NCBI GenBank assembly: GCA_001029735.1
Contig: CP011213.1
Location: 848,298 to 912,297, forward strand
DNA from: Berkelbacteria bacterium GW2011_GWE1_39_12
Lineage (GTDB): Bacteria; Patescibacteriota; UBA1384; UBA12157
Length of the DNA: 64,000 bases
Reading direction: 5' to 3'
The notes beneath the pieces are model-generated. The model saw only the letters and a program-made list of their open reading frames with translations. It was not told the origin of the DNA and did not search any database. Below are positions 5,671 through 49,620 of this stretch, one piece after another (the first letter of the stretch is position 1; each line of letters opens with the position of its first letter). A program made the position numbers and the translations under genes.

Positions 5671-7566
5671 ATGAAAATACTACTCTCTTGGTTAAAAGAT
5701 TATGTACAATTTGATAAATCTGCTGATGAACTTGCCGAAGATCTAAGCATGTTTGCTCATGAAGTCGAATCAATTAAAAAATATGGCGACGATTTTGTCT
5801 TAGATTTAGAAATCACACCAAACCGTGGTGATTGTCTTTCTCATTTAGGCATCGCTCGACAAATTTCTGCCATGTATGATAAAAGCTTGAATATCCCAGA
5901 AATTGAGATTGACGACGTAGAATTATCAAAAAACATTAAAGTCGTTATTGAAAAACAGAGTATTTGTCCTCGATTTACTGCAAGAATTATCGACAATGTC
6001 TCTATTAAAGAATCGCCAAAATGGCTTCAGGAAAGAATTACTGCTTATGGTTTTAGACCGATTAACAATATTGTCGACATAACAAATTACGCGATGATCG
6101 ATGCCGGTCAACCGCTCCACGCCTTTGATTACGACAAGATTAAGTACGGCTTAATGAGAATCCGGCTTTCAAAAGATGGTGAAAAAGTTACAACATTGGA
6201 TGGTAAAGAAAGATTCTTACCAAGCGAAGCCATCATTATTGAAGACGAAGAGAAAATTTTTGACCTAGCTGGCATTATGGGTGGCCAAGCATCTGAAGTC
6301 ACAAACGACACTAAAACAATCGTATTAGTTGGCTCTGTTTTTGATCCAATTTTAATTAGAAGAGCTTCAAAAAAACTTCATCATCAAACTGATGCATCTT
6401 ATCGTTACGAGCGAGGGGTAGATTTCGAAGGTTCCGTGTATGGCGTTAATTTAGCGGCAAATTTGATTAAGGAAACCGCACCCGATGCCGCAGTTGGTAA
6501 ATTAATTGACAAAAAACAAGTCGAATCAGATAAACAAACGGTTGATTTTACTTACGATCAAATTAACCGCTTGATTGGCACAAACCTAGACAAAGCTGCA
6601 ATCGATTCGTATTTAACTAGATTACATTTTAAAGTCGAAAGTGATACTGTGTACGTTCCATCATTTAGATGGTACGATGTAAAAATTTGGCAAGATTTAG
6701 CCGAAGAGGTAGCAAGAGTATTTGGTTATAATAGTATTTCTAGAAATACTCCTGCGCTGGCTACTAATATTACACAAAACAAAGAATGGATGAAAAGAGA
6801 ATCGGCTAAAGATTACTTAAAAGAAAAAGGCTTTACCGAAGTTTATGCAACATCTTTTTCAAACAAGGATAAAATTGTTTTACTAGGTTATAACTTAGAG
6901 AATTGTGTAAGAATCATTAACCCAATTGCACCGGAAACTGAGTTTTTAAGACCGAGCCTTTCTGTGTCGCTGCTTTCTGCAGCCGCTAAAAATCCTTGGT
7001 CGCCTGATTTGAATATTTTTGAAGTTGCTAAAGTGTTTGATATAAAAAAAGAATATTGGCAAATTGGTATTCTTTCGGCTGGGAAAAATACCAAAACTTT
7101 GCAAGAAATAATCAATGGCTTAAACGTAAAAGCTCAAGTCGCACAAGTTGACCAAAACATCCTTGATGCGTTTAAAATTCGAAGACCAATCAATATGGTA
7201 ATTTTCAATTCAGACGAACTTCCTGAAAATAATCAAGAAATTAATTATGAAGTCTCACAAAATAAATTACGAGATATTTCAAAATTTGCACCGACAATCA
7301 GAGATATTTCTATTATAGTTAACGCTGACATTGAGTCAAATGAGATAGAAAAAGCGATTACAGCGGCATCTAGCGCCGTGCTTTTCGCAGAAAAGTTTGA
7401 TGAATTTGTTTCAGACAAATTTGGTTTAAATAAAAAAAGTTTAGCATTTCATATTTGGCTTCAGAACAAAACAGATGTCGTATCTGAATCTGAGGCAAAT
7501 AATGAGATAGATTGTATTGTAAAATCGTTACAAGCTTCATTCAAAGCTGAACAAAGAACTCAATAA
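5671..7566 (+). CDS. pheT: phenylalanine--tRNA ligase beta subunit (short form)
   Basis: 631 aa with B1 and B3/4 domains (...LDLEITPNRGDCLSHLGIARQ...). It follows pheS. Confidence 0.9.
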   Translation: MKILLSWLKDYVQFDKSADELAEDLSMFAHEVESIKKYGDDFVLDLEITPNRGDCLSHLGIARQISAMYDKSLNIPEIEIDDVELSKNIKVVIEKQSICPRFTARIIDNVSIKESPKWLQERITAYGFRPINNIVDITNYAMIDAGQPLHAFDYDKIKYGLMRIRLSKDGEKVTTLDGKERFLPSEAIIIEDEEKIFDLAGIMGGQASEVTNDTKTIVLVGSVFDPILIRRASKKLHHQTDASYRYERGVDFEGSVYGVNLAANLIKETAPDAAVGKLIDKKQVESDKQTVDFTYDQINRLIGTNLDKAAIDSYLTRLHFKVESDTVYVPSFRWYDVKIWQDLAEEVARVFGYNSISRNTPALATNITQNKEWMKRESAKDYLKEKGFTEVYATSFSNKDKIVLLGYNLENCVRIINPIAPETEFLRPSLSVSLLSAAAKNPWSPDLNIFEVAKVFDIKKEYWQIGILSAGKNTKTLQEIINGLNVKAQVAQVDQNILDAFKIRRPINMVIFNSDELPENNQEINYEVSQNKLRDISKFAPTIRDISIIVNADIESNEIEKAITAASSAVLFAEKFDEFVSDKFGLNKKSLAFHIWLQNKTDVVSESEANNEIDCIVKSLQASFKAEQRTQ

Positions 7567-19352: not shown

Positions 19353-20966
19353 TTACTCCAATCTATTCAGCAGCGAATGTCCTGTCATTTGCGCTGGTTT
19401 AGGTATTTCTAAAAGTTGTAAAATTGTCGGCGCGATATCTGCTAAACTGTCGGTTGCTGAAATAATTTTGCTCAAAGCATTTGGTCCATACGAAAGCGAT
19501 GTTCTGATTAAATCTTTTTTTGCGTCATTTTTTACCATAATAAACGGCACAGGATTTAACGTGTGCATTGTCTCCCTCTCTCCAACATCACTTTGATTTA
19601 TATTAACCATTTGTTCCGCATTACCATGATCTGCTGTAATAATGGTCACCCCGCCAACCGATCTATTTGCTTTCACAATCTGACCTACTTGTTCATCCAA
19701 AGACTGGACTGCTTGACCAACTGCAATGATATTCCCTGTATGAGCAATCATGTCTACATTAGCAAAATTCAACACAATTAAGTCATATTTTCTTGATTTG
19801 ATAGCCGAAAGTGTCGCCGAAGTAATTTGTCTCGAAGACATTTCTGGCTTTAAATCATACGAAGCAACCTTTGGCGACGAAATTATCTTCCTTTCTTCAC
19901 CAGGATAAGCTTCTTCTTGACCACCATTTAAAAAGTAGGTAACATGGGCCATTTTTTCTGATTCAGCAATTTTTAACTGTTTGCCATTACTTTTTGAGAC
20001 AACTTCAGAAAGATTATTGGCGTAAATTTCATCTGGAAAAGCAACTTTAGCCGGCAGATCTTTTTGATAATTTGTAAAACCGCAGAAATATAAATTTTCA
20101 ACTTTTTTTGGTCTAAAGAAAAAAGTTTTAAATTTAGAATCAAGAAAAACTTTTGCCAATTGGCGAGCGCGATCCTCTCTAAAGTTAAAGAAAATAACAG
20201 CATCACCAGCTTTGATAGGATTAATTTTTCCGTCTTTATCTTTGATAAGCGTCGGCTCGATATATTCGTCTGTTAAATTATTCCTATAGCTCTCAGAAAT
20301 CGCGCTTTCAATTTTATCGGAAATTTTACCATTTCCTTCAGTTAGGGCAAGATAATATTTTTTAATTTTATCCCAGTTCTCATCTCGGTCCATGGCGGTA
20401 TTTCTTCCGCAAACACTGCCAAATTGACCAATCTTAACGTCATCCATTTTTACGCGAATTTTTTCAATAAAATTCAAAGCCTGGGTTGGTCCAGTATCAG
20501 TTCCGTCAGTAATTGCATCAATAAATACCCGGTCAAAATCTTGTCGGTGAGCCATTTCGAGTAAAGCGAGTAAATGCGAGATATCGGAATGCACGCCACC
20601 GTTAGAAATCATACCGATCAAGTGAACATTGCTATTATTTTGTTTTGCCCAAGCAAATGCTCCAGCTAATTGCTGGTTTTTGTAAAATGTTCGCCCAATT
20701 ATTTCTTGATTAATACGAGTATGAGGACTTTTAACAGACCGTCCAGCGCCAATCATTAAATGGCCCAAGCGCGACTCGCCGACGACATTGCCATATTCGA
20801 TTGCCCCAAGTGCTTGCAGAATCTTGTGGGGATAATTGCGCCAAAGATTATCAATATTTTTCGGATTATTCATGACTAAAGCATTACCACCCCAAGAAGG
20901 TGATAAGCCCCAACCATCTAATATCATTAAAACTACAGGTCTATTCTTCTGCATTTGCCCCTCCAA
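19353..20966 (-). CDS. gpmI: 2,3-bisphosphoglycerate-independent phosphoglycerate mutase paralog 1 (most divergent)
   Basis: ...LMILDGWGLSP..., ...GESRLGHLMIGAGR..., ...ITADHGNAEQM..., ...DMIAHTG... iPGM/alkaline-phosphatase-superfamily motifs. Confidence 0.85.
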   Translation of the reverse strand: MEGQMQKNRPVVLMILDGWGLSPSWGGNALVMNNPKNIDNLWRNYPHKILQALGAIEYGNVVGESRLGHLMIGAGRSVKSPHTRINQEIIGRTFYKNQQLAGAFAWAKQNNSNVHLIGMISNGGVHSDISHLLALLEMAHRQDFDRVFIDAITDGTDTGPTQALNFIEKIRVKMDDVKIGQFGSVCGRNTAMDRDENWDKIKKYYLALTEGNGKISDKIESAISESYRNNLTDEYIEPTLIKDKDGKINPIKAGDAVIFFNFREDRARQLAKVFLDSKFKTFFFRPKKVENLYFCGFTNYQKDLPAKVAFPDEIYANNLSEVVSKSNGKQLKIAESEKMAHVTYFLNGGQEEAYPGEERKIISSPKVASYDLKPEMSSRQITSATLSAIKSRKYDLIVLNFANVDMIAHTGNIIAVGQAVQSLDEQVGQIVKANRSVGGVTIITADHGNAEQMVNINQSDVGERETMHTLNPVPFIMVKNDAKKDLIRTSLSYGPNALSKIISATDSLADIAPTILQLLEIPKPAQMTGHSLLNRLE

Positions 20967-20971
20967 CCAAT

Positions 20972-22525
20972 TTAACTAATCAGACTTTCCCCAGTCATTT
21001 CCATCGGTTTTTGCAAATCCATAATTTGCAATACTGTTGGTGCAATATCGGAAAGTTTCAACGTTTGATCACCAACTGCTTGTCTTAGTGGTCTTTGAAA
21101 ATTCGGGTCTTTAGAAATCATCATAAACGGCACTGGGCTAGCAGTATGCTCGGTGTAATTTTCACCCGTATTTGGATTCAGCATCTGTTCCGCATTGCCA
21201 TGATCAGCCGTAATTAATAAGACAACATCTTTATCGATACTTCTACTTACTATTTTACCAATAAGTTCGTCTAATTTCTCGCAAGCCCTTATTGCAGCTT
21301 TGATATTTCCAGTATGTCCAACCATATCGGCGTTCGCAAAATTACAGACTATAAAATCATATTTTCCAATTGCCCCCATGACTTTGTCAGCTACGTCATC
21401 TGCTGCCATCTCTGGCTTAAGATCGAAAGTTGCCACTTTTGGCGAATGTACCAAAATACGATCTTCTCCTGGAAAAGGAGCTTCACGACTACCATTAAAA
21501 AAGAAAGTAACATGGGCGTATTTTTCAGTTTCTGCAATATGAAGTTGCTTTAATCCCGCATCTGAAATCACTTTGGCCAAAGGATTATTGATATCATGGC
21601 GATGGAAAACCGGTTTTACTAGATTACCATCTGCATATTCGTCCAAGTAGGCGAAAGAGGCAAAGTAAATATTTTGCAATTTCTTCTTTCGATCAAAGCC
21701 TTTAAAATTATGAGTAACCAAGCTTTCCGTTAATTCTCTGGTTCGTTCTGCTCTAAAATTGAAAAATATTATAGAATCGTTGTCAGCGATCGGAACAAAA
21801 GGACTTTCCGGCTTATTAATCGCCGTTGGCAAAATAAACTCATCGGTTTTATTCTGTCTATAATTTTCAGAAATAGCTTTTTGAACGCTCAATGATTGTG
21901 GACCGATCCCTTGAGTTAAGATATCATATGATTTTTGAATTCTATCCCAATGTTTATCTCTATCCATCGCCCAATAACGCCCAGAGACAGATTCTACTTT
22001 ACCAATACCAATTTCCTTAATTTTATCTTCTAGTTCCGATAAGTAAGATAGGGCTTTCATCGGATCAGTATCTCTGCCGTCAGTAATCATATGAATGTAA
22101 GCATTTTGCACTTGTTGTTTTTTTGCCATTTCCAATAAAGCATAGAGGTGATCAATGTGCGAGTGGATCCCGCCGTCAGAAACCAACCCGATCAAATGCA
22201 AATTGGATTGATTTTGTTTAACTTGAGTAAAAGCACCAAGTAAAACTTCGTTGCTGAAAAAAGATCCATCGTTAATTGCAGTAGTAATGCCCGGCAGATT
22301 TTGAAAAACAATTTGGCCACTACCGATGTTTAAATGACCGACCTCTGAATTTCCGTTTTCATGCCTTGGCAAACCAACTGATTCTTCGGCTGCTTTTAAT
22401 GCGGTATGAGGATACTTACGCCAAATTTCATCTAATAACGGTGTTTCGGACATTTCGATTGCATTGCCACCCCATGCCGGCGCCAAGCCCCAACCATCCA
22501 AAATCACCAATACAACTTTTTTCAT
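20972..22525 (-). CDS. gpmI: 2,3-bisphosphoglycerate-independent phosphoglycerate mutase paralog 2
   Basis: ...VILDGWGLAP..., ...NGNSEVGHLNIGSG..., ...ITADHGNAEQM..., ...DMVGHTG... Confidence 0.9.
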   Translation of the reverse strand: MKKVVLVILDGWGLAPAWGGNAIEMSETPLLDEIWRKYPHTALKAAEESVGLPRHENGNSEVGHLNIGSGQIVFQNLPGITTAINDGSFFSNEVLLGAFTQVKQNQSNLHLIGLVSDGGIHSHIDHLYALLEMAKKQQVQNAYIHMITDGRDTDPMKALSYLSELEDKIKEIGIGKVESVSGRYWAMDRDKHWDRIQKSYDILTQGIGPQSLSVQKAISENYRQNKTDEFILPTAINKPESPFVPIADNDSIIFFNFRAERTRELTESLVTHNFKGFDRKKKLQNIYFASFAYLDEYADGNLVKPVFHRHDINNPLAKVISDAGLKQLHIAETEKYAHVTFFFNGSREAPFPGEDRILVHSPKVATFDLKPEMAADDVADKVMGAIGKYDFIVCNFANADMVGHTGNIKAAIRACEKLDELIGKIVSRSIDKDVVLLITADHGNAEQMLNPNTGENYTEHTASPVPFMMISKDPNFQRPLRQAVGDQTLKLSDIAPTVLQIMDLQKPMEMTGESLIS

Positions 22526-22556
22526 TATCTAGTATTCCTTTGTTTAATTAGAATTA

Positions 22557-24098
22557 TTATATTACTTGACTTAAATCCTGTCCTGTTACTATTTCTGGCT
22601 GATTTAAGCCCAAGCGATTAATTACAGTTGCAGTCACATCGGCCAGAACCCCAATTGGTTCTGTTGTAGCACTGGCTAATTTGGTATCCAAATTAACAGT
22701 CACAGGCCTTTGATTAATTTTTTCCTGAAAACAAAGCAATAAAGGAACAGGATTAATTGTATGTTCCTTGTCAACTTCGCCGGTTTGTAAATTGATCATC
22801 TGCTCGGCATTGCCATGATCGGCTGTCACCAACAAGTCACCACCAGCATTCAAAACCGCTTGAGCTAATTTACCCAAACAATTATCAACTTTTGCCACTG
22901 CTTTTTGCGTTGCCGCCAAAATACCTGTATGGCCAACCATATCAGCATTAGCAAAGTTTAAAACAGTAAAATTTGGTTTATTTTTCTGGAAATATTCGAT
23001 AAATTTAGCGGTTAATTCATCGGCCGACATTTCTGGCTTTAAATCGTAAGTAGCAACTTTTGGCGATGGCACCACAATCCGCTCTTCACCGGCAAACGGA
23101 GCTTCCCAGCCACCATTAAAGAAATAGGTAACATGGGCGTATTTTTCTGTTTCAGCAATATGCAATTGAGTTAATTTAGCACTACTTAAAACCATTGCCA
23201 ACTGGTCCGTAACTTTATCAGCTAAAAAGGCAACTTTAACTAGCGGCGTTGGTTCGTGACCATAACTGGTAAATGACGCAAAATAAATTTCTGGAATATT
23301 TATTAGTTCATCAGAAATTTGTCTAGCCCTATCCGAACGAAAATTATAAAAGATGACAGCATCTTTTGACTTTATTCTGGCAGTATTACCGATTTTAGTG
23401 GGCTCGATAAATTCATCAGTTTTTCCGGCGGCATAGGAATCATTGATTGCTTTTTCTATCGTTTCAGCAGTCGGCGAGCTATCTGATGTTAAAATATTGA
23501 ATGCTTTTCGAGTACGTTCAACGCGTTTATCACGATCCATACCATAAAAACGGCCCATGACCGAGGCAATTTTGCCTACTCCGGTTTGAGTAATTTTTGC
23601 TTGGAGTTTTGGCAAATCACTTAAAATGGTTTTTGGAGCGGTGTCACGGCCATCGGTTATTACATGGATATAAACCTCGGTAAAATTTTGCAATTTTGCC
23701 AAATCAATTAAAGCCAATAAATGGTTAATATGCGCATGTACTCCACCCGAAGAACAAAGACCCAAAAGGTGGACTTTGGTGTTATTCTGCTTGGCATAAT
23801 TAAATGCGTCAACTAATTCCTTATTAACAAAAAAGGTTTTATCGGCAATGCTTTTATCAATTCGAGGTAAATCTTGCATAACAACACGACCGGTGCCTAG
23901 ATTTAAATGGCCAACTTCAGAATTTCCCATTTCGCCCCACTCCAAACCAACTTCTTCACCAGAAGCATGAAGGCTAGTACTAGGAAACATCGATAGTAAT
24001 TTATCATAATTTGGCGTCGGCGTTGAAAAAACGGCGTTTCCTTTTGTCTCCACGCTCAGACCCCAACCATCTAATATTGCTAAAACTAAAGGCCTCAA
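22557..24098 (-). CDS. gpmI: 2,3-bisphosphoglycerate-independent phosphoglycerate mutase paralog 3
   Basis: ...AILDGWGLS..., ...MGNSEVGHLNLGTGR..., ...VTADHGNAEQM..., ...DMVGHTG... Confidence 0.9.
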   Translation of the reverse strand: MRPLVLAILDGWGLSVETKGNAVFSTPTPNYDKLLSMFPSTSLHASGEEVGLEWGEMGNSEVGHLNLGTGRVVMQDLPRIDKSIADKTFFVNKELVDAFNYAKQNNTKVHLLGLCSSGGVHAHINHLLALIDLAKLQNFTEVYIHVITDGRDTAPKTILSDLPKLQAKITQTGVGKIASVMGRFYGMDRDKRVERTRKAFNILTSDSSPTAETIEKAINDSYAAGKTDEFIEPTKIGNTARIKSKDAVIFYNFRSDRARQISDELINIPEIYFASFTSYGHEPTPLVKVAFLADKVTDQLAMVLSSAKLTQLHIAETEKYAHVTYFFNGGWEAPFAGEERIVVPSPKVATYDLKPEMSADELTAKFIEYFQKNKPNFTVLNFANADMVGHTGILAATQKAVAKVDNCLGKLAQAVLNAGGDLLVTADHGNAEQMINLQTGEVDKEHTINPVPLLLCFQEKINQRPVTVNLDTKLASATTEPIGVLADVTATVINRLGLNQPEIVTGQDLSQVI

Positions 24099-43596: not shown

Positions 43597-45081
43597 ATGG
43601 GCTATGACGAATTAGCAAATAAAATTGCGTATCTGTCTAAACCCGATCAACAGCTGGTTCGGCACGCTTTTTTGTTTGCGCAAAAATGCCATGAGGGACA
43701 AGTCAGAAATACTGGTGAACCTTATGTCCAACATGCAATTGCTGCCGCCGGCACCATTGCCGATTTACATTTAGATGCCAAAACTGTGGCTGCTGCACTC
43801 CTTCATGATACATGTGAAGACACTGATTTAACTTTAAATGACCTTAGAAAAGAATTTGGTCGTGAAATTGCCAATTTGGTAGACGGAGTAACAAAGCTAA
43901 GTAAAATCCGAATTACTACCAAGTGGCTGTTCGTTAAAGAAAAAGAACAATTGGCTGAATACGACCGACAAATTGAAACCTTGCGCAAAATGTTTGTGGC
44001 TATGAGCAGTGATATCCGTGTTGTTATTTTAAAACTTGCCGATCGCTTACATAACATGCAAACGCTCGATGGAGTTCCCAAGGAAAAACGCTATCGCATT
44101 GCTAAAGAAACTTTAGCAATTTATGCACCTTTGGCTTATCGATTAGGTATGGGAGAAGTAAAAGGAAAGTTGGAAGACTTGGCTTTTCCGTATGTTTATC
44201 CGGAAGAATACGCCGCGCTAAAGAAAAAAGCGGCAGGCAGATTAGTAGAAAAAGAAAGATATATTCTGCAATTTAAAAAGAAAATATTGGCAAAACTTTA
44301 CAAAGACGGGATTAAGGGCCAAATTCATGGCCGCACCAAGCATATGTATTCCTTGTGGCGTAAACTTCAGCGATATGACAACGATCTTTCTCATATCTAC
44401 GATCTAGTTGCGCTTCGAATTATTGTGAATTCTGTGGAAGAATGCTACAAAGCTCTCGGCATCATTCATAATAACTGGAAGCCGTTGGTTGGTCGTATTA
44501 AAGATTATATTGCCATGCCAAAACCGAATGGTTATCGCTCAATCCACACCACGGTTTTCGGACCAGGCGGCGAAATTGTAGAAATTCAGATCAGATCTAA
44601 AGAAATGCACGAACAAGCCGAATTTGGTATTGCCGCTCATTGGCATTATTCCGAAAAAAAAGGTGGCATAGACTACTTACTGCGTAAAGTTTCGCGTGCT
44701 CCAAAAAAAGAATTAGTGTGGGTCAATGAACTGGCCAAATGGCAGAAGGCAGTCGGCGACAACAAAGAGATGGAATCTGATTTAGGCATGGACTTTTTCT
44801 CTGACCGCATCTTTGTTTATACTCCAACTGGCGATGTAAAAGATCTGCCAATCGGTGCGACGCCAATTGATTTTGCCTACGCAGTTCATACCGATTTAGG
44901 CAACCATGTCGGCGGCGCTAAAGTTAATGGAAAAATGGTTGATTTAGCCCATGAACTCAAAAGAGGCGATATTGTCGATATTATAAAAAAGAAAAACGCC
45001 TCGCCAAAAAGAGATTGGTTGGAATTTGCCAAGACTTCACTCGCTCGAGGCAAAATCAAGTCTCAGATTAAAGGAAAATAG
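43597..45081 (+). CDS. rel: short bifunctional (p)ppGpp synthetase/hydrolase (HD + RelA/SpoT synthetase + TGS; no ACT domain)
   Basis: HD motif ...HDTCEDT...; synthetase motifs ...RIKDYIAMPKPNGYRSIHTTV...; 494 aa. Confidence 0.85.
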   Translation: MGYDELANKIAYLSKPDQQLVRHAFLFAQKCHEGQVRNTGEPYVQHAIAAAGTIADLHLDAKTVAAALLHDTCEDTDLTLNDLRKEFGREIANLVDGVTKLSKIRITTKWLFVKEKEQLAEYDRQIETLRKMFVAMSSDIRVVILKLADRLHNMQTLDGVPKEKRYRIAKETLAIYAPLAYRLGMGEVKGKLEDLAFPYVYPEEYAALKKKAAGRLVEKERYILQFKKKILAKLYKDGIKGQIHGRTKHMYSLWRKLQRYDNDLSHIYDLVALRIIVNSVEECYKALGIIHNNWKPLVGRIKDYIAMPKPNGYRSIHTTVFGPGGEIVEIQIRSKEMHEQAEFGIAAHWHYSEKKGGIDYLLRKVSRAPKKELVWVNELAKWQKAVGDNKEMESDLGMDFFSDRIFVYTPTGDVKDLPIGATPIDFAYAVHTDLGNHVGGAKVNGKMVDLAHELKRGDIVDIIKKKNASPKRDWLEFAKTSLARGKIKSQIKGK

Positions 45082-45097
45082 TTCTATAAAAAGCAAA

Positions 45098-45126
45098 GAG
45101 CCCCGCGGTTTAAAACCAAGGGGCTC
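45098..45126. terminator. bidirectional terminator hairpin between convergent rel and 45148..45546 gene
   Basis: GAGCCCC-15 nt-GGGGCTC. Confidence 0.5.
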
Positions 45127-45147
45127 GATGTGTTTGCCATGAAATTC

Positions 45148-45546
45148 TTATTGCAGAGAACGAAATGCTTTCTCTGCAAGCTCTAGACTTATTTGTGCGG
45201 CGTGATAGCGCAGAAATGTACCTTTGTCACGCAGGTACTCATCCTGCCACTTCGCACTATTGACAAGGTCGTTTTTCACCTGATCGGCCATTTTGGACTT
45301 TTCAGTTGAGTCTTCCGCCATGATGGCGTTAAGGCTCAAGCCTTTCCGAGAAACTCGATCGGTAGTTGTCGCTTCGACATTATATACTCGGAATGATTCG
45401 GCTCGGTAACTTTCCGAGAGCTTAATCATTGCCTCGCTCTCTGCTTGAAACTGCCCGATGACCTGGTGCTGTTTGAAGATTGTCGTACCAATCACCAGCA
45501 CGACCATCAACAGCCACAATTTCCACAGACTTAACAGCTCTGCCAT
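45148..45546 (-). CDS. hypothetical membrane-anchored protein (132 aa); higher-GC islet; preceded by duplicated structured leader
   Basis: N-terminal TM helix (LWKLWLLMVVLVIGTTIF) then soluble domain. AGGAGG RBS inside the conserved leader. Confidence 0.5.
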   Translation of the reverse strand: MAELLSLWKLWLLMVVLVIGTTIFKQHQVIGQFQAESEAMIKLSESYRAESFRVYNVEATTTDRVSRKGLSLNAIMAEDSTEKSKMADQVKNDLVNSAKWQDEYLRDKGTFLRYHAAQISLELAEKAFRSLQ

Positions 45547-45642
45547 TTTGCTTTCCTCCTGGAAAGATATACTTGATCAGGTATGGCTACCTCATCAAGC
45601 GCAGGGCATTCTGCCCAGTATACCCCTTACAGGGGAAATTGG
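45541..45642 (-). promoter_or_regulatory. structured 5' leader, copy 1 of a 102-bp near-identical repeat (hairpins CCCCU-gua-AGGGG, GGGCA-gaa-UGCCC, CUUGAUGAGG-loop-CCUGAUCAAG, SD-sequestering CUUUCC-AGGA-GGAAAG)
   Basis: Read directly; ends at the ATG-GCA of the downstream ORF. Confidence 0.55.
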
Positions 45643-45732
45643 TGATTAGATTTTCTAATCCTCAATGTTTCCATGTAAGGAACTTTGGAGCCGAGGTATG
45701 AACCCCAGCTCCGCTGTAACAAAACCAATCTA

Positions 45733-46032
45733 TCAGCTCTTTGACAGATCGGTAACTGCGCATTTGAACCTATAATTTACTTCGTTTGCACTCTTGTAGA
45801 CTATTTCTACCCTGAGCCTACAAACTCTACTGTCTGACCGTCGGAAGAGAATAACCCCTTCCATTTTATGATCAGACTTCTTCTCTCGACTGTCGTCGGC
45901 TTGAACCTCTATCCTCTCCAGCGACCAGAAGTGAAGAAAATCTAAATCTCCCACTTCCTTCGCGAGATACCCATATGCTGCTGATACCAGATGTCCAGCC
46001 GCGCTGCCTATAACGATTGATCTTCTTGCCAT
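45733..46032 (-). CDS. hypothetical protein (99 aa), preceded by leader copy 2
   Basis: MARRSIVIGSAAGHLVSAAYGYL...; not similar to the 45148 ORF beyond Met-Ala. Confidence 0.4.
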   Translation of the reverse strand: MARRSIVIGSAAGHLVSAAYGYLAKEVGDLDFLHFWSLERIEVQADDSREKKSDHKMEGVILFRRSDSRVCRLRVEIVYKSANEVNYRFKCAVTDLSKS

Positions 46033-46128
46033 TTTGCTTTCCTCCTGGAAAGATATGCTTAATCAGGTATGGCTACCTAATCAAGCGCAGGGCATTCTGC
46101 CCAGTATACCCCTTACAGGGGAAGTTGG
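46027..46128 (-). promoter_or_regulatory. structured 5' leader, copy 2 (differs from copy 1 at 4 positions, including a compensatory pair in the long stem)
   Basis: Alignment of the two copies. An upstream TTGACT-17-TATTAT promoter sits on the minus strand at about 46215-46245. Confidence 0.55.
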
Positions 46129-46278
46129 CTACCTAAATTATAGATAGACAATTTCTCCTCAAGGAGCAAATAATAAACCTGTAAAATTATTAATGATCAT
46201 TCTTGTAAACCCATCTATAATAGCACGAAATGATTGAAAAGTCAAGTCATTAACAGGTAAACTCATAAAATTATTAGC

Positions 46279-46321
46279 AAAAACCCGCGGCTTTTGACCA
46301 AATGGTCGCCGCGGGTTTTTA
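46279..46321. terminator. bidirectional intrinsic terminator (ACCCGCGGC-17 nt-GCCGCGGGT, A-run/T-run flanks)
   Basis: Perfect 9-bp GC-rich stem. Confidence 0.65.
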
Positions 46322-46328
46322 GTTCGAA

Positions 46329-46586
46329 TCACACCGAATGTTCATAAAGCCAGAGTGTTAGAGCAGCCCACGTGGCTCCGCCAACATAGGCAGGAACGTC
46401 ATTGTCAACCGCTTCCTTAATCAGCCCCACCAGCTCGTTAGCATTCGGATCTTGCTCCCGAAGACCGCTTACTATATCGGTCAGTTCAGATGGAGTTTCG
46501 GATCCATTATTTCGAGCAGCAATTGTCTTGTTTACCAGGCCTCTGAACCTTTCAACGACTATCGGATTAACATCTCGATGAAGCAT
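46329..46586 (-). CDS. hypothetical protein (85 aa); own TTGACT-17-TATAGT promoter upstream on minus strand
   Basis: ORF plus GAAAAGGAG RBS; no recognisable domain. Confidence 0.4.
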   Translation of the reverse strand: MLHRDVNPIVVERFRGLVNKTIAARNNGSETPSELTDIVSGLREQDPNANELVGLIKEAVDNDVPAYVGGATWAALTLWLYEHSV

Positions 46587-46732
46587 ATCTGGTCTCCTTT
46601 TCAGTCTCTGATTTTCATTCTAAACTAACCACTATACCATAAAAACTACAAAAAGTCAATCCCTTGATTAAACCTGTGTTTAGGTTTAAAATGGGGTTAG
46701 ATTAAGTAATCTCTCGAAGTAAAGGAATTTAA

Positions 46733-48049
46733 ATGGCAGAAAACTTACAAAAGCCTCGTGGCACAAAAGACATTCTCCCTGATGAACAAAAATACTGGCA
46801 GTACGTTAGCCAGGTTGTTTTTGACAAATGCGAAAGCTTCGGTTGCGGCAAAATAACTACACCGATGTTCGAGTTCGCAGAAGTTTTTACCAAGAGTTTA
46901 GGTTCAAGCTCTGACATTGTCACCAAAGAAATGTTCGAAGTTCGCCGTGCCATTAATCCTTCACTAATTGAAGAGGGAAGCGAAACAGACAAGAAAACCA
47001 TGGTTCTCCGTCCAGAATTTACAGCTGCCATTGTTCGATCATATATTGAGAACGGTATGAAGATTTGGCCTCAACCAGTCAAACTATACTACGAGGGCTC
47101 CTGCTTCCGCTACGAGCGCCCACAATCAGGCCGATACCGTCAATTCAACCAATTCGGCGTTGAAGTCTTTGGCGACATTGATCCCTTAATTGACGCATCG
47201 ATTATTTACCTTGGTTATCAAATATTAAAGAAATTAGGCTTGGCACAAAACATCACCATCGATATCAACTCTGTTGGTTGTTCGACTTGCCGACCAAAAA
47301 TGAGAAAGAAATTAACCGACTATTTTGAAAAGTTCCTACCAACCCTATGCACGGATTGCAACAAAAGATTTATTGAAAATCCATTAAGAATTTTGGATTG
47401 CAAAGAAGAAAAGTGCCAAAAGGTAGTTGAAGGGGCACCTCAATTAGTCGATATGCTTTGCACCGAATGCAAGACACACTTCAAATCAGTTTTGGAAAAC
47501 TTGGATATTATGCAGATTCCTTACAACCTCAACTCCAAGTTGGTCCGCGGTTTGGATTACTATACCAAAACCGTCTTCGAATTTTACGATAGCAACGACA
47601 CTGCTCGCCAGTCAACTCTTTTGGGCGGCGGACGATACGATAATTTGATTAAAATGTTCGGTGGCAGCGATACACCAGCCGTTGGTTTTGGTGCCGGTAT
47701 TGAACGGCTTGTTGAGAAAATGAAGGAACTGGAAGTCGAAGTGCCGGAAGGCGGACGCGCTGAGGTTTCGATCATTCAAATCGGCGACAAAGCCCGAAAA
47801 AAATGCTTGCCTCTTCTTAATGAACTTGAAGAATTAGGCATTAAAGTAACCTGTATTATGGGTAAAGATAGCCTCAAAAGCCAGCTTCGCATGGCTTCAA
47901 GAATGAAGAGTAAAGTTTCAGTCATTATTGGCCAGCGTGAAGTGTTGGATAATTCAGCCATCGTTCGCGACATGATCGACGGCGTTCAAGAAACCGTGAA
48001 AATGGACAAATTGATCGGCATTCTAAAAGGGAAATTAGACAAAATTTAA
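46733..48049 (+). CDS. hisS: histidine--tRNA ligase
   Basis: ...KPRGTKDILPDE... motif 1 region, class II core and anticodon-binding domain; 438 aa. Confidence 0.9.
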   Translation: MAENLQKPRGTKDILPDEQKYWQYVSQVVFDKCESFGCGKITTPMFEFAEVFTKSLGSSSDIVTKEMFEVRRAINPSLIEEGSETDKKTMVLRPEFTAAIVRSYIENGMKIWPQPVKLYYEGSCFRYERPQSGRYRQFNQFGVEVFGDIDPLIDASIIYLGYQILKKLGLAQNITIDINSVGCSTCRPKMRKKLTDYFEKFLPTLCTDCNKRFIENPLRILDCKEEKCQKVVEGAPQLVDMLCTECKTHFKSVLENLDIMQIPYNLNSKLVRGLDYYTKTVFEFYDSNDTARQSTLLGGGRYDNLIKMFGGSDTPAVGFGAGIERLVEKMKELEVEVPEGGRAEVSIIQIGDKARKKCLPLLNELEELGIKVTCIMGKDSLKSQLRMASRMKSKVSVIIGQREVLDNSAIVRDMIDGVQETVKMDKLIGILKGKLDKI

Positions 48050-48094: not shown

Positions 48095-48171
48095 GGTATA
48101 GATGTATGTATGCATTGACAGTTACTTCTAAATCAGTTAATATAATATGTCTGATTACAGGAGGTGGAAAA

Positions 48172-48717
48172 ATGGATGAAATTCTAGCTAAACTCAAAAA
48201 GTTGCTTGAGGCAAAAATTAGAGTGCTCACAGCAATTCGCCGAACGAAGAGCGATACGGCAGACAAGCTTAAATCCGGATCCGACGAATTCGCAGACGAA
48301 CTGCGCCAAATTCTTCGCTGTGTTTCAGATCACGCAGAAGATTTGGTCGGAGAAAAAAGTGATATGATCACTTGGGGATGTGCCAGATGGGCAGAGGATT
48401 CCAATGATTATCGCAAACTGTATCTGACAAAAGCTGGGGACTGGAGATCCCAGACACATCCTGGCTGTCATGTGCCTTGGCATTATCTTATTGATCCCAA
48501 TGCTCCGAATCCTCGATATGAGATCAATAACTATACGTGGATCGCTGAAGCTTTCGAAGATGGACTAAAGACGCTTCTTCGGACCACGGATCTTGACGAG
48601 GCTAAAACCGAAAGCCTAAAGGCCGACGACAAACTCTCGTATTTCAAAAACCAGAGAGCTACTCTTCGCCAAGCAATCACTGACGCATACAAACAACTCA
48701 ATCAGCCATCCGACTGA
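48172..48717 (+). CDS. hypothetical protein (181 aa from ATG 48172; longer ORF from 48106), higher-GC
   Basis: AGGAGGTGG RBS before ATG 48172; no recognisable domain; followed by terminator 48725-48753. Confidence 0.5.
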   Translation: MDEILAKLKKLLEAKIRVLTAIRRTKSDTADKLKSGSDEFADELRQILRCVSDHAEDLVGEKSDMITWGCARWAEDSNDYRKLYLTKAGDWRSQTHPGCHVPWHYLIDPNAPNPRYEINNYTWIAEAFEDGLKTLLRTTDLDEAKTESLKADDKLSYFKNQRATLRQAITDAYKQLNQPSD

Positions 48718-48753: not shown

Positions 48754-48776
48754 AAATCAAAAAAATAATACTTTAA

Positions 48777-49519
48777 CCATATTCCACCTCGTAGGTGGAA
48801 TATGGTTCAGCCTGCATAATCTTCGATAATTATTTTTCTAATAATGGATAGATTTTTTTGGTAGGATTTTCGATCATTAACAAATTCTTGATACTGCTTT
48901 GGCGTGAAATCAAACAACCCATCAAAAGAACATAATTGAAGGTTTGATTGCCCTAAATATTCTTGATAGGACGAAAAGTCCCAATCTTGAGGTTTTTTAA
49001 CCAAACCAGCTGATGTTGGATTGAGATGAATATAACGACTTAAATGCAGAAGCTGCTCATCTGATTTAACTAGAACGCTTTTAAACCTACCTGCCCATAA
49101 GGGCCCGGTTCTCTTAAATTTAATATTGTGATAACGAGTATAGCAATTAAGTGTTTTCGCCATAAAATTCGAGATTCCTTTGTCGGTAATTTGCTTCAAA
49201 ATTAAATGAATATGAGTTGGCATAAGACAATAGGCAATTATCTGCACGTCTACTTGACCAGACTTCTTCATCTCATTAATTATTGCGGCTTGTAATTTTT
49301 TATCTAAGTTTAAAAATCTCGAATATTTAAAATTAAAATTATTAAAGCGATATAGATCCAAGATGTTGATTAACCGATTAAAATCTTGAGCATTGTTAAA
49401 AATGACATATTTGGCGATGCTCCGACTATAAACATGATATACCGAGCCTGACACCAATGGTTCTTTTCTGTACTGCATAATATCACTATACCATATTCCA
49501 CCTACGAGGTGGAATATGG
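48777..49519. mobile_element. REP-associated tyrosine transposase (RAYT) unit: tnpA-REP flanked by two inverted 29-bp palindromic REP hairpins (CCATATTCCACCT-CGTA-GGTGGAATATGG at 48777-48805; reverse complement at 49491-49519)
   Basis: Flanking hairpins are exact reverse complements of each other and bracket the Y1-transposase gene. Confidence 0.7.
48807..49478 (-). CDS. REP-associated tyrosine transposase (IS200/IS605-like Y1 HUH transposase)
   Basis: ...YHVYSRSI...IIAYCLMPTHIHLIL... HUH motif and ...LSRYIHLNP... catalytic Tyr region; 223 aa. Confidence 0.8.
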   Translation of the reverse strand: MQYRKEPLVSGSVYHVYSRSIAKYVIFNNAQDFNRLINILDLYRFNNFNFKYSRFLNLDKKLQAAIINEMKKSGQVDVQIIAYCLMPTHIHLILKQITDKGISNFMAKTLNCYTRYHNIKFKRTGPLWAGRFKSVLVKSDEQLLHLSRYIHLNPTSAGLVKKPQDWDFSSYQEYLGQSNLQLCSFDGLFDFTPKQYQEFVNDRKSYQKNLSIIRKIIIEDYAG

Positions 49520-49620
49520 TTGTAAGATAATTATTTATGAAAATTACTTATATAAATAGCAAAGAGCCCGCGGTCATATGATCTTTGATATCATTTCAGA
49601 TCGTAACCACGGGCTTGATG

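Follow-up and report, generated by a model that had tools for sequence, protein, structure and literature searches.

A structured leader repeated before two unrelated ORFan genes in Berkelbacteria: predicted pairing between the repeat and its non-repeated flanks

This study concerns a 102-nt direct repeat in Berkelbacteria bacterium GW2011_GWE1_39_12, a bacterium of the candidate phyla radiation (CPR), of which a stretch of 64,000 nt (hereafter the window) of the 915-kb contig CP011213.1 was analyzed. The repeat forms the leader of two unrelated small open reading frames (ORFs), orf99 and orf132, and can be set beside several described systems. Translational attenuators of the erm/cat type make use of three- or four-segment leaders, and phage morons are promoter-gene-terminator units of atypical composition that lie between conserved genes. 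In the 5' untranslated region of the maturation gene of phage MS2, a complementary sequence upstream pairs over a long distance with the Shine-Dalgarno (SD) sequence, and a competing hairpin is present (PMC4615214). The promoter early stem-loops (PeSLs) of T4-type phages combine a sigma-70-like promoter, a stem-loop that is often located between the -35 box and that at -10, and an SD sequence plus start codon at the 3' end, and they sit upstream of ORFans in variable regions (PMC2839356). By analogy, the Berkelbacteria locus appears functionally closest to the MS2 maturation-gene leader and the erm-type attenuators, and evolutionarily closest to the PeSL cassettes and the phage morons; a sequence relationship of the repeat to the MS2 leader, the erm attenuators, the PeSLs or the morons was not found.

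The two copies of the repeat, R1 (45541..45642) and R2 (46027..46128), both lie on the minus strand, in the sense of which all repeat positions are given below, and each comprises a 96-nt leader followed by the first two codons, ATG-GCA, of an ORF of 132 (R1) or 99 amino acids (R2). They are the same at 98 of the 102 positions (BLAST E ~1e-35) and differ at positions 5 (T/C), 50 (G/T), 68 (C/T) and 72 (T/C; in each case R1/R2), and the likeness drops to background directly beyond both edges. The initial annotation, made from the letters alone, had given the same two copies, the same number of differences and the same end at ATG-GCA, all of which was confirmed by sequence comparison. Its statement that the downstream ORFs are non-homologous was borne out as well, since the proteins encoded by orf99 and orf132 have no mutual similarity; the repeat is not part of a segmental gene duplication, which that annotation had named as an observation that would weaken its structural inference. 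An artefact of assembly can be dismissed as the source of the duplication, considering the fact that orf99 adjoins orf132 in two independent genome assemblies (AKM and HBO accessions). For one sample, two ENA assemblies (contig ends L009, L010, L003 and L004) stop at R2 position 58, after ...TTAGGTAGCC, and resume at ~45766 inside orf99, with 304 nt between left unassembled. The k-mer size does not account for these breaks; the Logan contig ends are exactly those expected at k=31 from the differences at positions 5 and 50. There may be a population-level structural variant. An 11-nt sequence, TTAGGTAGCCA, occurs both at 46129-46139, in the 5' flank at the junction of copy 2, and at 46070-46080, within the third hairpin described below (minus sense).

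The repeat is known from one genome only among the genome, metagenome, viral and phage collections that were searched. Within the window, no third copy was recovered by a pattern search with 3 mismatches, by blastn with word size 7, by nhmmer or by a covariance model; nor did blastn with the same word size, nhmmer and the two-copy covariance model bring up an additional one in the relatives, of which seven syntenic loci were searched. Exact-stem pattern scans of GTDB genomes, JGI metagenomes and IMG/VR returned only chance matches in unrelated high-GC contigs (L001, L005-L007), and two more sub-patterns gave nothing in IMG/VR; the GTDB, JGI and IMG/VR scans did not return the window's own copies, and their negative outcome covers other sequence only. 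A blastn search with the whole island in which the repeat lies gave no match among 50,697 phage records. The wider search that the initial annotation had proposed therefore leaves the number of copies at two. The view that the repeat lies outside the known riboswitch classes was upheld, as an Rfam cmscan of 44500-47500 at E<=10 returned nothing that overlaps either copy.

Taken in isolation, the repeat folds more stably than shuffled sequences (z = -3.0 and -4.0 for the two copies) and contains all four hairpins that had been claimed for it. Hairpin 1 has the sequence CCCCU-gua-AGGGG. Hairpin 2 (GGGCA-GAA-UGCCC; 45604..45616 in copy 1 and 46090-46102 in copy 2, minus strand) has a pairing probability of 0.90-0.98 in the native context, and hairpin 3 is treated further below. 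Hairpin 4 (CUUUCC-AGGA-GGAAAG; 45551..45566 and 46037-46052, minus strand) holds the SD sequence AGGAGG (45555-45560 in copy 1 and 46041-46046 in copy 2, minus strand). It had been proposed to bury this sequence, which is true for the last two G only: the AGGA is situated in the loop, with an unpaired probability of 0.94-1.0 in the native context, and the AUG, 5 nt past hairpin 4, is also unpaired in the predicted native fold. The four-hairpin form of the isolated repeat (-34.0 kcal/mol for R1 and -38.3 for R2) is nearly isoenergetic with a second form, which joins positions 5-26 to positions 70-91 by base pairing (-39.5 kcal/mol for R1 and -39.7 for R2) and constitutes the minimum-energy fold; the estimated barriers for refolding between the two are 8-13 kcal/mol. 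In this long-distance form an anti-SD-like tract of pyrimidines, UUUCCCCUG (positions 5-13; 45630..45638 in copy 1 and 46116-46124 in copy 2, minus strand), pairs with the SD region CAGGAGGAAA (positions 82-91) in a duplex of -10.0 kcal/mol, and AGGGGUAUACU pairs with AGYAUAUCUUU (positions 16-26 with 70-80). The four substitutions shift R1 towards the closed form by ~4 kcal/mol relative to R2, a difference that is anecdotal with two copies. A two-state model of the isolated repeat, in which the four hairpins alternate with the long-distance helix, was downgraded because the native flank out-competes both hairpin 1 and the helix. A hammerhead-like CUGAUGA in copy 1 was also rejected, the motif being broken in copy 2 and matching nothing in Rfam.

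With the native sequence upstream of the repeat added to the fold, the probabilities of hairpin 1 and of the long-distance helix are each <= 0.05, and the 5' part of the repeat is predicted to pair with a segment that lies 22-40 nt upstream of it, giving rise to an extended hairpin of ~60 nt that we refer to as H0. The four-hairpin fold of the initial annotation thus holds for the isolated repeat, whereas this larger flank hairpin is predicted to take the place of hairpin 1 in the native transcripts. More explicitly, H0 of copy 1 (45623..45682, minus strand) has its 5' arm in the unique flank (UUCCUUACA.GGAA..AUUG) and its 3' arm in R1 positions 2-20, and H0 of copy 2 (46107..46168, minus strand) has its 5' arm in an equally unique flank (UGCUCCUUGAGGA.GAA.UUG) and its 3' arm in R2 positions 2-22. 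Both are capped by a perfect apical hairpin of 7 bp, GAUUAGA-AAA-UCUAAUC in copy 1 (45644-45660, minus strand) and CUAUCUA-UAAUU-UAGGUAG in copy 2 (46129-46147, minus strand), the sequence of which is wholly different between the copies; around 3% of the 21-mers of the window fold as well as either of them. The native flanks capture repeat positions 8-20 at a mean probability of 0.71 (copy 1) and 0.81 (copy 2). In a control in which random 60-mers of the window were used as flank in the same position (n=400 per copy), the mean capture probability was 0.01-0.04, and the native value was reached in 0/400 cases for copy 1 and in 4/400 for copy 2. With such random flanks the long-distance helix had a mean probability of 0.39 in copy 1 and of 0.08 in copy 2, against <=0.05 with the native flank in both. 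The sequences of the two flanks themselves are no more alike than chance would allow (p = 0.64 at a local score of 7) and give an ambiguous MAFFT alignment, and the differences between the 5' arms that face an identical 3' arm keep pairing, with U/C opposite G20 and A/G opposite U14, as read from the structures.

Together with the flank, each leader makes up a unit of 147 nt, and the two units fold at z = -5.0 and -5.2. The leaders (-41 and -40 kcal/mol) are ~3 standard deviations more stable than the 39 other leaders of the window (-20.8 +/- 6.9 kcal/mol), and in copy 2 G.U pairs give the sense strand an advantage of 10.6 kcal/mol over the antisense strand. The claim that two non-homologous small genes have a strongly structured 5' leader in common is thus corroborated by the z scores of both the repeat and the larger unit. 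As far as folding predictions can tell, the pairing between flank and repeat is the best evidence at this locus for selection on structure. It shows, at the level of predicted structure, a functional unit that is larger than the visible repeat and extends ~45 nt into the non-repeated flank, and the 5' limit, which had been placed at the repeat edge, should be moved by that distance.

The substitutions within the repeat, on which the initial annotation had based its case for selection, do not carry it. Hairpin 3 (45571..45600 in copy 1 and 46057..46086 in copy 2, minus strand) is formed by positions 43-55 and 60-72; the stem as such stands, although it consists of 13 bp that hold three of the four differences and not of 10 bp with two. 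In copy 1 the 13 bp include one G.G mismatch (loop GCCA, -16.6 kcal/mol) and in copy 2 they are fully paired (-18.1 kcal/mol). At pair 50-65, R1 has G.G where R2 has U.G; at pair 47-68 the G-C of R1 corresponds to G-U in R2, and at pair 43-72 the G-U of R1 corresponds to G-C, so that the three differences concern three separate pairs, none of which changed on both sides; the compensatory substitutions that had been described are not there. When four substitutions were placed at random in a simulation that favoured transitions 2:1, and three of them fell in stems, the observed pattern had p = 0.28 if R2 is taken as ancestral and p = 0.004 if R1 is, without an outgroup to choose between them. 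Because no pair shows a two-sided change and the p value depends on the ancestral copy, the four substitutions do not show selection on structure, and the signature of selection that had been read from them is lost.

A promoter-like site with an extended -10 TG, P2 (46217..46245, minus strand; TTGACT-17-TATTAT), sits 38 nt upstream of H0 of copy 2 and is likely the start of the orf99-orf132 transcript. The third ORF of the island, orf85, is preceded by a similar site (46631-46659, minus strand; TTGACT-17-TATAGT with TG), and both sites match the consensus at 10/12 positions with TG. The consensus scan revealed no strong promoter-like site upstream of orf132 and copy 1. The island had been described as containing three independently promoted genes, which agrees with the strong sites before orf85 and orf99 but not with the lack of one before orf132. 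We infer that orf99 and orf132 are transcribed as one operon, with copy 1 being reached by read-through from orf99. A terminator-like hairpin with a T-run, GAGCCCC...GGGGCUC, can be read from the sequence after orf132 (45088..45126, minus strand), and another with a T-run is found after orf85 (about 46279-46320, minus strand); the scan also flagged hairpin 3 of copy 2 as terminator-like. Inside the repeat itself, a -10 hexamer TATACT at positions 21-26 matches at 5/6 positions and is accompanied by the -35-like hexamers TAGCCA (4/6) and TCACCA (3/6), with CCCCTGTAAGGGG between the -35-like hexamer and TATACT; this promoter-like site lacks an extended -10, and only copy 2 reaches the scan threshold of 9/12. 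Three short ORFs were observed in and around the leaders. An upstream ORF (uORF) of 13 codons at 46159-46200 (minus strand) has its stop within the upstream arm of H0 of copy 2, one of 15 codons at 45627-45674 (minus strand) starts in the arm of H0 of copy 1 and stops at repeat positions 14-16, and a 4-codon ORF (AUG CCC UGC GCU UGA) lies inside the repeat at positions 35-49.

The three small ORFs, orf85, orf99 and orf132, constitute a lineage-specific island of 1.65 kb (45082..46732), which comparison with relatives places as an insertion between relA/spoT (43597..45081, plus strand) and hisS (46733..48049, plus strand) and in which the ORFs lie on the strand opposite to relA and hisS. The gene order clpB, a 317-aa gene, relA, and then hisS and lexA is kept in seven loci of relatives. 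The space between relA and hisS is variable: the two genes are directly adjacent in L015 and L017 (gap 44-55 nt), are separated by 446 nt in L016, by purL in L012 and L013 and by a 379-aa gene in L014, and relA is followed by a Y1 transposase-like gene in L011. The purL gene was not found anywhere in the window. Given that the contents of this slot differ among relatives, the three-ORF island is a lineage-specific insertion in a variable slot. The initial annotation had called it GC-rich, and this is supported by the composition of its ORFs (46-48% GC versus 39.2 +/- 2.9% for 25 reference genes of the window) and by the GC content at third codon positions of orf132 (53% versus 34.5 +/- 4.8%). 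The island is proposed to be horizontally acquired and moron-like. As in morons, its units have consensus promoter-like sites, terminator-like hairpins and an atypical GC content and lie between genes that are adjacent in relatives; unlike morons, they are found in a bacterial chromosome without prophage context, and the analogy covers the island and not the repeat.

All three proteins are ORFans. The orf132 product (AKM82785.1; 45148..45546, minus strand) is predicted to have a transmembrane helix at its N-terminus as well as a long helical hairpin, and that of orf99 (AKM82786.1; 45733..46032, minus strand) a cystatin/NTF2-like alpha+beta fold; orf85 (46329..46586, minus strand) is not preceded by the repeat and has its own promoter-like site and terminator-like hairpin. 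A word-index search of 5.8e9 proteins with orf132 and orf99 returned only the query, as did an exhaustive HMMER search of 1.84e9 cluster representatives, carried out for orf132 only. Searches of the small proteins against Pfam, PADLOC and PHROGs gave nothing above threshold, and a DUF2553 match (E = 0.0065) was discarded, being under the cut-off of that family. Given its confident single-sequence fold (predicted local distance difference test 74.5, predicted template-modeling score 0.64), orf99 is probably a real gene.

The neighbours of the island are relA, hisS, a 203-aa ORFan, a Y1_Tnp gene and lexA; integrase, reverse transcriptase and phage genes were not found among the neighbouring genes. 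The 203-aa ORF (48106-48717, plus strand) is located between hisS and the Y1_Tnp gene and has no family assignment; it is missing from the corresponding place in L012, in which lexA comes 635 nt after hisS, and represents a second lineage-specific insertion. The Y1_Tnp gene, which is IS200/RAYT-like (RAYT, REP-associated tyrosine transposase; REP, repetitive extragenic palindrome), lies 2.7 kb from the repeat (48807-49478, minus strand; bracketed region 48776-49521) and is flanked by two near-identical perfect palindromes of 32 nt, ACCATATTCCACCT-nnn-AGGTGGAATATGGT. A like layout with another palindrome is seen in L011 at about 5872-6620, and it looks as if the gene and its palindromes form a REP/RAYT-type arrangement that this Berkelbacteria lineage has conserved. 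Two stretches of 37 nt with AGCAAAGAGCCC at their end, one in the terminator region after orf132 (45067-45103) and one upstream of the Y1_Tnp gene (49533-49569), have 81% identity and may be related terminators. Elsewhere in the window, three tandem ORFs of ~515 aa at 19353-24098 (minus strand) have repeats of 143-177 nt in common at 68-77% identity and look like a paralogous gene triplet. With respect to the 102-nt repeat itself, a REP/RAYT reading was rejected as it fails on the defining sequence features. The same holds for the template and variable repeat pair of a diversity-generating retroelement: the differences (T/C, G/T, C/T, T/C) are not confined to adenines, the repeat is a 5' leader and there is no reverse transcriptase among the neighbours.

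Judging from the predicted folds, the repeat is most likely an SD-occluding structured leader that was duplicated as an expression module. The specific reading that we tentatively prefer, with a confidence somewhat short of even, is that of a cis-acting translation-control leader of ~147 nt, copied before each cistron of a bicistronic operon in an inserted island and functioning as a three-segment switch. The repeat would be the conserved 3' two-thirds of this leader, and the operon would have the order promoter P2, leader, orf99, leader, orf132, terminator. Each leader would be an array of H0, hairpin 2, the 13-bp hairpin 3 and hairpin 4. In the native transcript H0 would hold the anti-SD-like tract UUUCCCCUG, so that the default state would be open, with AGGA exposed in the loop of hairpin 4. 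Once freed, the tract and the neighbouring sequence could pair with the SD region in a long-distance helix of 20 bp, by which the ribosome-binding site would be closed; loss or covering of the upstream arm would thus free the tract and shut translation off. The three segments would act as anti-anti-SD (the arm), anti-SD (the tract) and SD, and candidate triggers would be a ribosome on the short uORFs, cleavage by a nuclease, or an RNA or protein that acts in trans. The second copy may have originated by recombination that put an existing expression module before another ORFan, and not by gene duplication. The switching mechanism and its trigger we infer from thermodynamic modelling. Since H0 needs the arm in the RNA, the transcripts would have to start upstream of it.

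The preferred reading resembles what has been described for the Levivirus MS2, whose leader of ~130 nt contains several hairpins and in which an upstream pyrimidine tract pairs with AGGAGG and closes the ribosome-binding site, and a competing hairpin that holds the tract keeps translation open; the in silico counterparts here are the pairing of positions 5-13 with 82-91 and H0, respectively. Unlike the MS2 leader, the Berkelbacteria leader is situated in the DNA genome of a CPR bacterium, occurs twice in one operon and is a prediction, without a relationship in sequence or in Rfam, and H0 is a predicted equilibrium state whereas the MS2 hairpin is transient. With the erm/cat attenuators it would share the pairing of segment 1 with segment 2 and the alternative pairing of segment 2 with the SD-containing segment, as well as short uORFs that overlap segment 1. 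The polarity, however, would be opposite, as covering segment 1 would here close the SD, and the uORFs lack an SD and differ between the copies, nor is there a link to a resistance gene.

Several points weigh against the translation-control leader. All evidence for the structure consists of thermodynamic prediction, and two copies in one genome provide no phylogenetic covariation. The H0 pairing was noticed first and tested after, which may have brought some hindsight bias into its p-values. The antisense of copy 1 is nearly as stable as the sense strand (-52.0 versus -53.3 kcal/mol), so that a role at the DNA level is conceivable. Two hairpins follow orf99, one of them flagged as terminator-like, and could stop the transcript before copy 1; the read-through to copy 1 is therefore the weakest step. 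Finally, the uORFs at the H0 arms are only a lead to a trigger, and neither they nor the 4-codon ORF inside the repeat have an SD sequence.

The hairpins might also be incidental, in that a recent illegitimate or homologous recombination event simply copied a ribosome-binding site and the repeat provides an SD sequence and a start codon only. The presence of just two copies with 96% identity fits such a recent event, as do the absence of a homologue in any search, the lack of a two-sided change in any stem pair and the occurrence of TTAGGTAGCCA at the 5' junction of copy 2 and in hairpin 3, which looks like junction microhomology. A passive scar would not, however, predict that two non-homologous flanks pair specifically with the 5' part of the repeat, and the leaders fold far more stably than shuffled sequences and than the other leaders of the window. 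We consider this neutral origin unlikely, yet worth serious consideration. More doubtful is a cassette that acts at the DNA level in the manner of a PeSL, in which the repeat would bring its own promoter (-10 TATACT) with a spacer that contains a stem-loop, the hairpins upstream would be terminators and the repeats would provide homology for the shuffling of ORFans, for instance by excision of a 486-bp circle. The layout matches in that the stem-loop CCCCTGTAAGGGG lies between a -35-like and a -10-like box and in that SD and start codon form the 3' end; terminator-like hairpins follow orf99. Like the PeSLs (PMC2839356, PMC4122927), the repeat is a module that ends in SD plus start codon and precedes unrelated ORFans in a variable region. 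But its promoter is weak or doubtful, with poor -35 hexamers (TAGCCA, TCACCA) and no extended -10, where the clear promoters of the island match at 10/12 positions with TG, and transcripts from ~position 33 would be without H0, which leaves the flank pairing unexplained. Furthermore, the unit is much longer, with four hairpins; a phage genome has about 50 copies as opposed to the 2 in 64 kb seen here, the repeat is set in a cellular chromosome with neither phage genes nearby nor a phage match, and no sign of recombination products was seen.

The initial annotation had thought of a riboswitch-like or RNA-thermometer-like element, or of a recombining gene cassette, and none of these fared well. 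A structured leader with mutually exclusive pairings that involve the SD sequence is what a ligand-sensing riboswitch or a thermometer would need, and the lack of a match to a known class makes a new one formally possible. For a riboswitch, however, there is no conservation past one genome, the downstream genes are unrelated ORFans without a metabolic link, and two near-identical copies define no multi-helix junction with conserved unpaired nucleotides. For a thermometer, hairpin 4 has -11.8 kcal/mol at 4 C and still -2.9 at 55 C, where it is thus folded in silico, four of the six SD bases already lie in the loop, and the predicted SD accessibility of the leader is flat (0.22-0.49) from 4 to 55 C. 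Sensing of a ligand or of temperature therefore seems very improbable. A DNA recombination site, either attC-like as in integrons or another hairpin-recognising cassette boundary, is to our mind even harder to credit. H0 bears a loose resemblance to such sites as an imperfect hairpin of ~60 nt with a variable apical part, small ORFans in the same orientation are found between the repeats, and the Y1 gene is at 2.7 kb. Against this, the repeat contains no GTT or AAC core on either strand; the single GTT in the flank of copy 1 is on the wrong arm and absent from copy 2, so that the flank arms have none in common. An attC site is expected 3' of the cassette ORF and the repeat is located on their 5' side and takes in the start codon, the neighbouring genes include no integrase, the Y1 gene is flanked by unrelated palindromes of its own, and the G.U pairs of copy 2 favour the RNA of the sense strand.

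A more far-reaching version of the translation-control leader is a portable translational switch, in which a copy-specific anti-anti-SD arm would couple the translation of each ORFan to an upstream signal (for instance a protein, a small RNA, a nuclease or the translation of a uORF), and the 102-nt part would serve both as the body of the switch and as homology for the capture of ORFans by CPR bacteria or phages. We regard this as speculative and on balance quite unlikely, but if true it would represent a cellular counterpart of the PeSL cassettes. In methodological terms, the informative signal resided in the non-repeated flanks and not in the four substitutions of the repeat. In CPR bacteria the genomes are tiny, regulators that can be recognised are few and ORFans account for much of the gene content, and to our knowledge almost nothing is known about gene regulation in this lineage. 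The locus provides a concrete case of how a newly acquired ORFan may gain its expression signals, namely as a copy of the complete leader of its neighbour, and it would offer a testable example of purely RNA-based translational control in the CPR lineage.

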